Below, one piece after another: positions 7,118 through 9,438 of a DNA stretch of 64,000 nt. Location of the stretch: positions 23,431-87,430 of the forward strand of contig CAYSCW010000002.1 in NCBI GenBank assembly GCA_964429795.1, written 5' to 3'. Under the pieces are notes generated by a model, which worked only from the letters and a program-made list of their open reading frames with translations, did no database searches and was not told where the DNA came from. Each line of letters begins with the position of its first letter. Positions within the stretch are counted from its first letter, which is position 1. The position numbers and the translations under genes are program-made. Origin of the DNA: an uncultured Eubacteriales bacterium (GTDB lineage: Bacteria > Acidobacteriota > Aminicenantia > Aminicenantales > Aminicenantaceae).

Positions 7118-8326
7118 ATGTCGGCAACATTGAACCCTCCGTTCGTAGAAGGGCTTGTGCCCCAGAGCCTGGAGAAGGAAAAACGGCATGTTCTACTTAG
7201 AACCATACGAAATTGGAGGGAAAATCTGGCCAATGATGATCCAGGACAACCTTCTGTTATCCTTTATTCGTTGGGAAACTTGAGTGATAAAGTCACCCTT
7301 ATAGCCATCTCCCTTTGTGCATCTTTGGGTATTTGGATTCCTCAGATTTCAATACCCTCCCCTAAAAAGCACGCTCTGGCCGATTCTATCAGTCTGATTT
7401 TTGGAGCGAAAAACTTTTTATCTCCAGACCAGATAAAGGCTCAACTCATTGCCCTGAAGGGAGCAATGTTTTCAGTGCCGGAGCCCCTCTTTTCCTCAAA
7501 AAAAGCATGGGAATTTTCTCCTTTAAAGTCAACATCAAATCAATTGTTCAATTTAGAGGAATGGATTAGGTATGTCGTGACGCTTGTATACTTGAGTGGA
7601 GCAAAAAGTGTTGTGTTTGATATCCGAGTGAATGGGAATTTTATTGTTCAAAATCAAAGAGAAGGGCGGGATTTTGCCCGCCGCATAAGGAATGGCTGTA
7701 AACAGTGTGGCATTCACTCTTCTTACATCCTGGGCAACACCAACCATTTTATAGGACAAGCCGCAGGAGAATATCTGGAAATCAAGGAAGCCCTGGAGGT
7801 GCTCAGGGGAAGAGGTCCTCTGGATTTAACAAAAGTGGCCATGGAGGTCGCTTCTGAAATGGTGCGCCTGGCCTATCCTCTCTCTCAGAGAACGGAGATT
7901 AAAAAGTCTTTAAAAAACAAGATTGATGAAGGAAAAGCCCTGGAAATATTCAAAGAAATGATCATCTTTCAGGGGGGAAATCCACTTTATATGGATGATA
8001 TCGCTCTGTTTCCTAAAGTAAAAAAGAGTCTACCCATTTTATCTGAGAAAGAAGGCTTCCTCCATAATCTGGATGAGAACAAACTTATATACCTCCGGTC
8101 TGAATTGGATGTTAGGCCTGGGAATCTGGGAACCGGATTTACCATTTTAAAGAAAAGAGGAGACCGGATAAAACAGGGAGATCTCTTGGCCGAAATTTTC
8201 CATGATGGGATCAGGAATGTTTCCGCTCTGAATAGCCATTTTAAGGATCTTTTTGTGATCGATACAACACCGCCACCCTTTCAGCCTCTGATCATCGAAA
8301 AAATCAGAGAAGAAGAACTTTCTTGA
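7118..8326 (+). CDS. Thymidine/pyrimidine-nucleoside phosphorylase-like protein, N-terminally shortened and with the conserved phosphate-binding motifs degenerate (probable non-catalytic homolog)
   Basis: YSLGNLSDKVTLIAISLCASLGIWIPQIS aligns to the TP motif HSTGGVGDxTTLVLAPLVAAxGVPVAKMS with the Gly and His replaced. HALADSISLIFGAKNF aligns to [15 protein letters not shown]. The C-terminal half (VVFDIRVNGNF..., ALEVLRGRGPLDL, ALEIFKEMIIFQGGNP, PGNLGTGFTILKKRGDRIKQGDLLAEI) is clearly TP-like. Confidence 0.65.
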   Translation: MSATLNPPFVEGLVPQSLEKEKRHVLLRTIRNWRENLANDDPGQPSVILYSLGNLSDKVTLIAISLCASLGIWIPQISIPSPKKHALADSISLIFGAKNFLSPDQIKAQLIALKGAMFSVPEPLFSSKKAWEFSPLKSTSNQLFNLEEWIRYVVTLVYLSGAKSVVFDIRVNGNFIVQNQREGRDFARRIRNGCKQCGIHSSYILGNTNHFIGQAAGEYLEIKEALEVLRGRGPLDLTKVAMEVASEMVRLAYPLSQRTEIKKSLKNKIDEGKALEIFKEMIIFQGGNPLYMDDIALFPKVKKSLPILSEKEGFLHNLDENKLIYLRSELDVRPGNLGTGFTILKKRGDRIKQGDLLAEIFHDGIRNVSALNSHFKDLFVIDTTPPPFQPLIIEKIREEELS

Positions 8327-8382
8327 TTTTTTTCAGAAAAAATTTGCATAATTTCCTATAAAAAATAAAATAAAGTCAACCT

Positions 8383-9438
8383 ATGTCTAACAAAAAAAGG
8401 GTTGCAGTGGTCACTTCAGATGTCCCTTTCGTTAAAGGGGGACATATCACCATCGCTCAAAGCACCGTCAGGGCTCTCAGAGCTTGGGGCTATGAGGCCG
8501 ATTTGATCCTCACTCCTCAAAACAGGTTTGGTCATCAGCTCAGGGCTTATATGGCCACACGGTTGACCGATGTGGGTGAGGATGGTCTTGGTCGTAAGAT
8601 TCACCAAGTCATTTCTTTTCGTTATCCCAGTTATGCTGTCAAGCATTCCTGTCATGTCTGCTGGCTTAACCATCGGATGCGGGAATATTATGATCTTTGG
8701 GAGAGTTTTTCCTCTCAACTGGGCTTTCGAGCAAAGCTCAAGGAAGGCTTGAGAAGAAGAATCATTCATCTTCTGGATACACAGCTCCTGAAACACAATG
8801 TTACCAAGCTTTTCGCCCAATCGAAAACAATTCAAGAGAGGCTGAAACTTTGGGGAAGTATTCCGTCTGAATTACTCTACCCCCCTCCCCCTCAAAGAGA
8901 TTATCGCACCGAATCCTACCAAGACTTCATTCTCTCTGTTTCTCGACTCCAAAGGTTGAAGCGATTGGACCTTCTCCTGGATGCCTTAGCGCTCATGAAA
9001 AATAGAGATTTTAAGGCGGTTATCATCGGAGAAGGGCCAGAAGAGAAGAATTTAGGTTTAAAAATAAAAGATAAGCAGCTTGAAAACAGGGTATTGCTCC
9101 TGGGGAAAGCAGATGAGAAAATTCTTATTGAATACTATTCTCGTTGTTTAGCCGTGTTTTTTGCTCCGCTCAGGGAAGACTACGGCTTGGTGACCGCGGA
9201 AGCATTTGCTTCCAGAAAGTGCGTGGTGACCGCCTTGGATAGCGGAGGGCCAGCAGAACTGGTCATAGACGGTGAAAGAGGATATGTCTGCCCAGCTCGT
9301 CCTGAACGGATTGCTGAAAAATTGGATGAGCTGGCTGAAAATAGGGCTCTGGCAGAAAACATGGGTGAGAAGGCCTATACATTTATCTCCCACTTGACCT
9401 GGGAAAAAGCAGTGGAGAAACTTATCGTATGTGAGTAA
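8383..9438 (+). CDS. Glycosyltransferase family 4 (GT-B, Glycos_transf_1 type)
   Basis: C-terminal GT4 signature: FFAPLREDYGLVTAEAFASRKCVVTALDSGGPAELVIDGERGYVC with the EX7E-like acidic pair. The N-terminal GT-B half starts RVAVVTSD...GG. Confidence 0.85.
   Translation: MSNKKRVAVVTSDVPFVKGGHITIAQSTVRALRAWGYEADLILTPQNRFGHQLRAYMATRLTDVGEDGLGRKIHQVISFRYPSYAVKHSCHVCWLNHRMREYYDLWESFSSQLGFRAKLKEGLRRRIIHLLDTQLLKHNVTKLFAQSKTIQERLKLWGSIPSELLYPPPPQRDYRTESYQDFILSVSRLQRLKRLDLLLDALALMKNRDFKAVIIGEGPEEKNLGLKIKDKQLENRVLLLGKADEKILIEYYSRCLAVFFAPLREDYGLVTAEAFASRKCVVTALDSGGPAELVIDGERGYVCPARPERIAEKLDELAENRALAENMGEKAYTFISHLTWEKAVEKLIVCE

Follow-up and report, generated by a model that had tools for sequence, protein, structure and literature searches.

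A lineage-specific, apparently inactive pyrimidine-nucleoside phosphorylase paralogue with an upstream ACT-domain protein as its likeliest partner

The 64,000-nucleotide stretch of DNA analysed here (the window) encodes a 402-aa protein related to thymidine and pyrimidine-nucleoside phosphorylases (TP/PyNP), which we call TP-like (7118..8326, + strand), and directly after it a 351-aa GT4-family glycosyltransferase (8383..9438, + strand). A sequence-only reading had proposed that the first is a degenerate pseudoenzyme and that the two proteins form a pair. The locus thus raises the question of whether TP-like retains the chemistry of its relatives and, if not, which neighbor it works with. The two genes belong to a string of five on the + strand, in which they are preceded by a stand-alone ACT-domain-pair protein of 131 aa (6639..7034, +) and followed by an OPT-family oligopeptide transporter (9510..11414, +) and a CstA-family (peptide/pyruvate) transporter (11476..13128, +). 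The ORF coordinates, strand and short gaps over 6639-13128 are as first read, with successive gaps of 83, 56, 71 and 61 nt. The identities proposed for the four neighbors also hold, all being above the Pfam threshold: ACT_8 at E=8e-12 and ACT at E=1e-9 for the ACT protein, Glycos_transf_1 (PF00534, the GT-B C-terminal domain) at 115.9 bits against 26.4 for the GT4, OPT at E=1e-95 with TIGR00733 above cutoff, and CstA at E=3e-135. The best PDB match of the ACT protein is 2F06, an uncharacterised ACT-pair protein (E=3e-9). Upstream of the ACT gene, the sequence shows a TGgTATAAT element (6607-6615, +) and then a strong Shine-Dalgarno sequence, AAGGAGG (6628-6634, +); no obvious Shine-Dalgarno sequence was seen for the TP-like and GT4 genes. 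No intergenic terminator was found within the string. Co-directionality, short gaps and the lack of such a terminator make an ACT/TP-like/GT4/OPT/CstA operon plausible. A search of the whole window gave no Rfam match for a riboswitch or leader upstream of the ACT gene. The PADLOC defence models do not match ACT, TP-like or GT4, and a defence-system reading was therefore dropped.

The TP/PyNP homology of TP-like is confirmed by profile, sequence and structure searches. The NCBIfam model TIGR02644 matches with E=1e-33 (116.7 bits, cutoff 409), the match being confined to residues 160-380, and phmmer finds the PyNP structure 1BRW in the PDB at E=1.7e-24, with residues 49-394 of TP-like aligned to 81-430 of 1BRW. 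The AF2 model (pLDDT 83.8, pTM 0.88) predicts that the three-part NP-II fold is kept, with an alpha domain, an alpha/beta domain and a PYNP_C domain. When the product of 7118-8326 was searched with Foldseek, PyNP/TP structures were the best matches and not TrpD; 1BRW is found at E=4e-26 and TM 0.81, and the best 19 matches are PyNP, TP or AMP phosphorylase only, with TM 0.74-0.83. A TrpD identity is ruled out by the same fold search, in which TrpD structures score E~1e-6 and TM 0.43-0.50 at 8-12% identity. There is no TrpD match in the Pfam, NCBIfam or PDB sequence searches, and YbiB is absent from the PDB phmmer matches at E<=0.01 and from the 50 Foldseek matches listed. TP-like is below every curated PyNP/TP threshold, and other family members behave likewise: NF004747 gives 107.7 against a threshold of 559, PF07831 gives 20 against 27, and PF00591 and PF02885 are not detected in TP-like by Pfam profile search. 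The N-terminal shortening that had been noticed is real, at 32 residues instead of about 35 relative to PyNP, and two N-terminal helices are gone.

We then compared the catalytic residues of 24 TP-like family sequences with those of eight canonical PyNPs, using the numbering of P0014, which is that of BsPyNP. Where canonical enzymes carry the phosphate-loop motif (K)HSTGGVGD, the window protein reads (L)YSLGNLSD (YSLGNLSD being residues 50-57; 7265..7288, +). Of this motif, Ser51 (BsPyNP S83) alone is shared by all 22 family sequences that cover the position. The canonical Gly-rich stretch starting V(A/P) is represented by the remnant IPQISIPSPKKHALADSISLI (7337..7399, +), where the loop itself has become roughly IPSP-KKHALADSIS, K108 is Q and T120 is L; its length and sequence vary across the family, with indels. 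Both replacements had been spotted at the outset, with a register off by 1-2 residues. The loss of R168, S183 and K187 had not been seen. These residues belong to the alpha-domain base-binding part (canonically YALRDVTATV followed by SSIMSKK), for which another segment stands in (7499..7603, +, from the alignment and the AF2 model), and residues 127-144, where R168 is expected, are predicted to be disordered (pLDDT <50). In E. coli TP, the base is bound by Arg171, Ser186, Lys190 and His85, which correspond here to Arg168, Ser183, Lys187 and His82 (PMC5238616). TP-like has lost most of the residues for phosphate binding (K81, T84, K108, the Gly-rich loop and T120) and for base binding (H82, R168, S183 and K187), and the family has no conserved residue at the base-binding positions. 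K81, H82, the Gly-rich loop, R168, S183 and K187 are missing in all ~24 family sequences examined, so that alignment does not restore the catalytic residues any more than the fold search moves the protein to a TrpD-like or other family. On the basis of these residues, phosphorolysis has presumably been lost. The window protein does retain the equivalents of S83, T92 and S110 (S51, T60, S78) plus D57-K58, and these may still form a residual anion- or phosphate-binding site.

Loss of catalytic residues is accompanied by a shift in where the family is conserved. The family forms a single clade on a long stem and comprises ~18 clusters at 50% identity, with intact ORFs and divergence down to 29% identity; a score gap separates its members (>=210 bits) from canonical PyNPs (<=187 bits). 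The canonical active-site columns have a conservation of 0.91 in true PyNPs and 0.36 in the TP-like family, against a family mean of 0.43. No other part of the family is conserved so poorly, which argues that no replacement catalytic site has emerged. Conservation now lies in the last ~240 residues: the G.GPLD..K..LE block, the helices after it and the PPxFxPLIIE tail. Conserved residues particular to the family include K239, E243, R258, K262 and L265-K266 besides this tail. The best-conserved block, GQAxGxxLExxEAxxxLxGxGPLDxxK (7754..7834, + strand), contains the invariant residues G213, G217, E221, E224, L229, G233, P234, D236 and K239 and is partly common to true PyNPs, whereas the C-terminal motif PPxFxPLIIE(K/R)I (8270..8305, + strand) is specific to the family, with a conservation of 0.76 against 0.42 in canonical PyNPs. 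Selection on the gene is purifying and relaxed: dN/dS is 0.24-0.30, compared with about 0.055-0.21 for the neighbor genes, and purifying selection is present in two independent clades (0.30 for the window gene against L003; 0.24-0.29 in a clade without GT4). Within the gene, dN/dS is 0.42 in the N-terminal part and 0.23 in the C-terminal part; the first 44 residues alone give 0.86, and the last 100 give 0.18. TP-like is 29-35% identical between loci, while ACT is 61-86%, GT4 64-73%, OPT 75-83% and CstA 78-84% identical; the mean distance within the family (0.74) exceeds that of canonical PyNPs sampled across many taxa (0.59), indicating faster evolution. Erosion is graded. Some members still read STG...LDK..SIPG, others lack the N-terminal part; the L004 gene carries an in-frame TGA and has its first start codon downstream of the S83 motif, P0029 begins at the same point, and P0030 is internally deleted for positions 108-190. 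The kept PyNP/TP fold, the absence of catalytic residues from ~24 sequences, the poor conservation of the active-site columns and the purifying selection together give good support to the original description of a degenerate TP-like pseudoenzyme.

The neighborhood of the gene is less in keeping with the proposed pairing. The order ACT, TP-like, optionally GT4, OPT, CstA is found at every family member examined, one copy of the syntenic locus being labelled Candidatus Aminicenantes. In all 22 loci whose sequence extends upstream, the gene immediately before TP-like is an ACT orthologue, at a gap of 28-90 nt (275 nt in L004); the dN/dS of ACT is 0.055-0.17. OPT follows in each locus whose sequence reaches that far, and CstA is likewise an invariant downstream member. 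The GT4 is present in seven of 15 distinct loci (the window, L003, L004, L005, L008, L090 and L092), 46-56 nt after TP-like, and absent in the other eight (L009, L012, L013, L016, L017, L018, L019/20 and L089), where OPT directly follows TP-like ~90-110 nt downstream. To explain this distribution, the GT4 must have been gained or lost independently at least twice. The pairing with GT4 is thus true of the window and not a property of the family, whose invariant neighbors are ACT upstream and OPT-CstA downstream. No nucleoside-catabolism genes (deoB, deoC, cdd, PNP) are found near at least 15 family loci or within the 64-kb window; among canonical PyNPs, L021 adjoins phosphopentomutase and L029 adjoins PNP and cytidine deaminase. 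Since the whole ~15-kb region is syntenic in the lineage, adjacency is weak functional evidence.

Considering these data, a pseudo-phosphorylase functionally coupled to the GT4, such as a regulatory subunit that binds a sugar phosphate or a nucleoside, is quite improbable. The two genes are adjacent and co-directional in the window and six other loci, and the GT4 appears intact and constrained, with an E-x7-E motif (EDYGLVTAE, residues 265-273) and a dN/dS of 0.16. However, TP-like persists in the eight loci without GT4, its dN/dS being the same with or without that gene, no further link between the genes is seen, and the GT4 matches no specific NCBIfam equivalog. Because the GT4 is missing from these loci and at least two independent events are needed, the pairing is not a functional unit, and the GT4 would be a passenger or have an independent function. 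Pseudoenzymes commonly act by regulating an active paralogue, and TP-like might accordingly be a dead paralogue that heterodimerises with the active PyNP of the organism and regulates it; the intact PyNP of L021, its nearest canonical relative, occurs in the same metagenome as the family locus L015. In TP/PyNP structures, however, the dimer interface is in the alpha domain, which in TP-like is truncated and shows the poorest conservation and the weakest selection, and the TP-like gene never adjoins a PyNP or deo gene. We regard this role as very improbable.

The same evidence bears on what the protein itself might do. Purifying selection and an intact fold would be expected of a neo-functionalised enzyme that catalyses a different reaction in the old or a new cleft, and S51 and K58 do not vary across the family, D168 hardly does, and the three phosphate-site hydroxyls survive in the window protein. 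Yet the columns that form the cleft are the most variable and contain indels, the R168 segment is predicted to be disordered, and the N-terminal part with S51 is gone in some lineages, as are positions 108-190 in others. Most invariant residues lie in the block that is largely common to true PyNPs (G213, G217, E221, E224, L229, D236) or in the C-terminal tail, and no new conserved residues have been gained in the cleft, leaving a new enzyme improbable. We assign the same low probability to a protein that binds nucleic acid or an acidic partner in the manner of TrpD2/YbiB. The family has a mean pI of 9.0, whereas canonical PyNPs average 6.2 and the nearest of them has 5.4, and YbiB offers a precedent as a non-catalytic member of the same fold superfamily: it has the fold common to TrpD and NP-II, is devoid of their catalytic activity and uses basic grooves to bind DNA (PMC10123104). 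In the window, however, roughly one long ORF in two has a pI >=9 (the ORF set being bimodal), and the basic pI was down-weighted as evidence for nucleic-acid binding because of these many basic proteins. Moreover, three family members are neutral (pI 6.9-7.4), TrpD2 is neither a sequence relative nor the closest fold, and the locus lacks a DNA-metabolism context. Least probable of all is a decaying relic without function. TP-like is the fastest-evolving gene of the locus, its N-terminus is eroded and L004 has an in-frame stop, but intact ORFs persist in ~18 clusters that have diverged to 29% identity, the dN/dS values given above hold in two independent clades, and the motifs of the family's own are conserved.

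We therefore favor, as probable, the explanation that TP-like is a lineage-specific inactive PyNP paralogue with a non-catalytic role, and that the ACT protein and not the GT4 is its likeliest partner. Phosphorolysis would have been abandoned, and the protein would work as a binding or adaptor protein; the invariant adjacency points to the ACT-domain protein encoded directly upstream as partner, and the locus as a whole may be devoted to amino-acid and peptide sensing and uptake. A more specific version, in which the ACT pair and the dead PyNP paralogue form a two-protein metabolite-sensing module that controls OPT/CstA or signals nutrient status, is rather unlikely. In these Aminicenantes-like bacteria the phosphorylase scaffold would have been co-opted as an effector or adaptor without catalytic activity, and the lone ACT gene beside the intact PyNP operon of L029 would be left over from an ancestral PyNP regulated by amino acids. 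An HMM search found ACT-pair genes near canonical PyNPs at one of 67 loci, L029 only, which is too few to support an ancestral ACT-PyNP link as a claim. No ACT-PyNP fusions occur among the long PyNP-like matches, where the fusions are to DeoB or cytidine deaminase. One further long PyNP-like match is fused to an LpxB fragment and is likely artefactual.

If TP-like is an inactive paralogue, the annotation matters, since JGI names family members 'pyrimidine-nucleoside phosphorylase' and metabolic reconstructions based on that name would wrongly credit these uncultured bacteria with pyrimidine nucleoside phosphorolysis via this gene. The family would be a second, independent case, after TrpD2/YbiB, of the NP-II/PRT-III fold being kept without its chemistry, and its graded erosion series should be useful for studying the change from enzyme to pseudoenzyme. 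A true partnership with the ACT protein would offer a way to study nutrient sensing in a lineage of peptide fermenters that is widespread and uncultivated. The family is described nowhere in the literature searched (Aminicenantes thymidine phosphorylase, nucleoside-phosphorylase pseudoenzymes, Aminicenantes OPT/CstA). The finding opens no long-standing question; what made it look unusual was the link to the GT4, which does not hold.

Several known systems resemble parts of this locus. The ACT pair of the window is weakly similar to the ACT domains of AHAS small subunits, and an ACT gene immediately before a larger enzyme-fold protein recalls stand-alone ACT regulatory subunits such as the AHAS small subunit IlvN/IlvH; unlike the partners in such arrangements, TP-like is not a known ACT-regulated enzyme and is apparently inactive, and it is gene order that suggests the association. 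Archaeal AMP phosphorylase (DeoA-like; 4GA4-4GA6) has the same fold as TP-like (Foldseek E~1e-19), and TIGR03327 matches at E=7e-26, but TP-like lacks both the additional N-terminal domain and the intact catalytic motifs of the archaeal enzyme. TrpD2/YbiB is basic like TP-like and is the precedent for a non-enzymatic use of the PRT-III/NP-II fold. TP-like has no detectable sequence relationship to it and matches the PyNP/TP fold far more strongly, and YbiB is not known to have a PYNP_C domain. The two also differ in genomic context, which is LexA/dinG for YbiB (PMC10123104) and ACT/OPT/CstA for TP-like. The closest system remains PyNP/TP (NP-II; Pdp/DeoA; 1BRW from Geobacillus stearothermophilus), which is homologous to TP-like and has the same three-part fold (TM 0.81). 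Both have the LGxAxGxxLExxEA...G.G...D block, the PYNP_C barrel and the C-terminal ...LI.E. Relative to PyNP/TP, TP-like is 32 residues shorter N-terminally, has lost K81, H82, T84, K108, the Gly-rich loop, T120, R168, S183 and K187, lacks nucleoside-catabolism neighbors, scores below the curated thresholds and evolves faster; the nearest canonical relative of its family is the intact PyNP beside deoB in L021.

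The 402-aa protein encoded at 7118-8326 (TP-like) is a true homologue of pyrimidine-nucleoside phosphorylase (PyNP) and thymidine phosphorylase (TP). It scores far below every curated PyNP/TP cutoff; TIGR02644 matches residues 160-380 only (E=1e-33; 116.7 bits, cutoff 409), and Pfam returns PYNP_C alone, at 20 bits against a cutoff of 27. With phmmer against the PDB the top match is Geobacillus PyNP 1BRW (E=1.7e-24), residues 49-394 pairing with 81-430, which corresponds to a 32-residue N-terminal deficit. The sequence-only reading was therefore right about the shortening, which it had put at about 35 residues, and the replacement of HSTGGVGD by YSLGNLSD that it described is seen in the same alignment. 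Apart from residues 1-4 and 127-144, an AlphaFold2 model that drew on 15 sequences has high confidence (mean pLDDT 83.8, pTM 0.88). A Foldseek search of the PDB fills its first 19 places with PyNP, TP or AMP phosphorylase (1BRW, E=4e-26, TM 0.81), and anthranilate phosphoribosyltransferases come next (E~1e-6, TM ~0.45). Since PyNP/TP structures rank far ahead, a TrpD-like reassignment is ruled out and the original identification stands.

An exhaustive profile search over 1.84 billion representatives, with clustering at 50% identity, yields a TP-like family of ~18 clusters (210-760 bits), separated by a score gap from thousands of ordinary PyNPs at ≤187 bits. In a neighbour-joining tree the family forms a single clade with a long stem. 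The intact protein closest to it is a 437-aa PyNP with all catalytic motifs, encoded directly downstream of phosphopentomutase (DeoB) in locus L021 (region 386-2920). Metagenome Ga0209636 is the source of both L021 and family locus L015, and the L021 enzyme may represent the active paralogue that gave rise to the family.

We aligned 24 TP-like relatives with eight intact PyNPs and used the numbering of P0014, in which the motifs have the same positions as in BsPyNP. Across the 24 family sequences no conserved residue is found at K81, H82 or K108, in the [10 protein letters not shown] loop or at T120, or at R168, S183 and K187; in E. coli TP the equivalents of R168, S183, K187 and H82, namely Arg171, Ser186, Lys190 and His85, have base-binding roles (PMC5238616). 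T84 is kept in 7 of the 24 and D89/K90 in most members, and S83 (Ser51 in the window protein) is the sole invariant active-site position among the sequences that include it. The window protein retains hydroxyls at the S83, T92 and S110 positions, a set that the family as a whole does not keep. Conservation is inverted: true PyNPs conserve the canonical active-site columns most strongly (0.91; mean 0.61), and in the TP-like family these columns rank among the worst (0.36; mean 0.43). The family's best-conserved stretches are instead BsPyNP 261-280 (G.GPLD..K..LE...E.L) and 421-430 (PP.F.P.I.E). The segment due to carry R168 falls in a low-confidence part of the model. The lost residues have thus not merely been exchanged for a new catalytic set; the cleft is released from constraint. 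The loss of catalytic residues proposed from the single sequence thus survives proper alignment and extends family-wide to the substrate-binding residues, while the fold is kept and conservation has relocated.

Nei-Gojobori dN/dS values, calculated with a custom script, show that selection on TP-like is purifying but relaxed. Between the window and L003, its closest relative (85% identical), TP-like gives 0.30 and nine neighbours 0.055-0.21; three pairs in a second clade give 0.24-0.29 for TP-like, 0.13-0.17 for ACT and 0.06-0.07 for OPT. Along the gene the value is 0.86 over the first 44 codons, 0.42 over residues 1-160, 0.23 over 161-402 and 0.18 over the last 100. In deeper comparisons TP-like retains 29-35% identity, ACT 61-86%, GT4 64-73%, OPT 75-83% and CstA 78-84%. 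Truncated forms occur: P0030 has lost positions 108-190, and P0029 starts at the same point as the L004 protein, past the S83 motif. In L004, a Candidatus Aminicenantes MAG, the gene has an in-frame TGA (region 9900-10070) and no canonical start codon before the end of that motif, and homologous codons ('CSTGALGNK') run on upstream of this first start. Possible explanations are N-terminal truncation, readthrough of the stop codon and an assembly error. P0017, P0018, P0023 and L004 retain 'ST(G)' and 'KL.SIPG', and so represent intermediate states. The picture is of a gene that has lost its chemistry, evolves fast and is kept for something borne mainly by the C-terminal ~240 residues.

In the window, five plus-strand genes follow one another, and the coordinates agree with the earlier map: the ACT-pair protein (ACT, 6639-7034, 131 aa), TP-like after 83 nt, the GT4 glycosyltransferase after 56 nt (8383-9438, 351 aa), the oligopeptide transporter OPT after 71 nt (9510-11414, 634 aa) and the peptide/pyruvate transporter CstA after 61 nt (11476-13128, 550 aa), the four neighbours all being above Pfam thresholds. 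The PKD-domain and RmlD genes upstream are transcribed in the opposite direction. No intrinsic terminator is present in any intergenic gap of 6639-13128; ACT has a strong Shine-Dalgarno and, 24 nt upstream, a TGgTATAAT element, and no obvious Shine-Dalgarno precedes TP-like or GT4. Co-transcription is plausible. Elsewhere, the window holds a second OPT-family transporter ~13 kb downstream (24023-26023, 666 aa) and M14 (40529-42232), M23 (28260-29156), TldD/PmbA (57934-60722) and tricorn-like S41 (62508-63959) peptidases, which fits a peptide-degrading lifestyle.

Every family member with readable context (window, L003-L020, L089-L092) sits in the same syntenic block: DUF507, RmlD(-), PKD(-), an optional GATase(-), ACT(+), TP-like(+), an optional GT4(+), OPT(+), CstA(+), a small ORF(-), ExbD, thioredoxin-like, acyl-CoA dehydrogenase(-) and radical SAM(-). 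The GATase, a class-I glutamine amidotransferase/peptidase C26, lies between PKD and ACT in most related loci (L004, L005, L008, L009, L089, L090, L092) and is absent from L003 and the window, where PKD and ACT are only 223 nt apart (6416-6638). The small ORF (13225-13569, listed as 114 aa) keeps its position in L008, L089, L090 and L092, with 89-91 aa and no Pfam match in related loci. The radical-SAM protein at the block edge (15929-18514, 861 aa) has orthologues in L089 and L090 with Radical_SAM_N2, Radical_SAM and DUF2344. One family locus is labelled Candidatus Aminicenantes bacterium, and the taxonomic assignment is based on this single record title; L003 (CAYVAT010000003.1; proteins 85-98% identical to the window's, full synteny) is titled 'uncultured Eubacteriales bacterium' yet is syntenic with L004, and its label looks unreliable.

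An ACT orthologue lies directly upstream of TP-like in 22/22 loci with upstream sequence (ACT HMM), at 28-90 nt, or 275 nt in the N-terminally truncated L004. Seven distinct loci have GT4 (window, L003, L004, L005/6, L008, L090/91, L092) and eight do not (L009/10, L012, L013, L016, L017, L018, L019/20, L089); in the latter OPT follows TP-like by ~90-110 nt. In trees of OPT and of ACT, the loci without GT4 fall into a single clade, apart from L089, which is sister to GT4-bearing L090, so that GT4 must have been gained or lost independently two or more times; TP-like dN/dS is equal with or without GT4. The pairing is therefore facultative: the adjacency reported by the sequence-only reading is real in the window, but as a family trait this striking link does not survive. 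The locus is fixed for ACT upstream and OPT-CstA downstream, with GT4 dispensable, and because synteny in the lineage takes in the whole ~15 kb, gene order by itself says little about function. Of the 67 loci examined that have a canonical PyNP, L029 (region 7218-11072), from a high-GC organism, is the only one with an ACT-pair gene beside it: a 143-aa homologue, scoring 82 bits with the ACT HMM, neighbours an intact PyNP in divergent orientation, and PNP and cytidine deaminase come after the PyNP. The arrangement may reflect an older ACT-PyNP association or have arisen by chance.

TP-like is very probably a non-catalytic PyNP paralogue under selection, one that would no longer catalyse phosphorolysis and may act by binding. 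The ACT-pair protein would be its best candidate partner, and that the two work together is a tentative suggestion; the two parts combined we regard as fairly probable. ACT-pair modules usually sense amino acids and regulate a larger partner, and the setting is an organism with a peptidase-rich window and a second OPT transporter.

A functionless relic is disfavoured by the dN/dS values and by ORFs that stay intact over deep divergence, as is a new enzyme by a cleft that varies among members and by the truncations, and a GT4-coupled regulator by the GT4-less loci. We also considered a YbiB-like nucleic-acid binder, in line with the family's mean pI of 9.0 vs 6.2 for canonical PyNPs, although the local proteome is basic too. 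Regulation of an active PyNP through heterodimerisation would call on the dimer interface, which we take to lie in the alpha domain, but this is the most eroded part of TP-like.

Despite sharing the PyNP/TP fold, TP-like fails four tested features of these enzymes (thresholds, phosphate motifs, base-binding residues and genomic context) and should therefore not be annotated as PyNP/TP, although JGI gives it that label. Dead paralogues are common, and we class TP-like as a lineage-restricted pseudo-PyNP, of which our literature search found no description. It is no TrpD2 member: YbiB is absent from the PDB phmmer matches at E of 0.01 or better and from the 50 Foldseek matches listed. TrpD2/YbiB is nevertheless the nearest conceptual precedent, as YbiB has the superfamily fold with neither TrpD nor NP-II activity and is a DNA-binding protein (PMC10123104).
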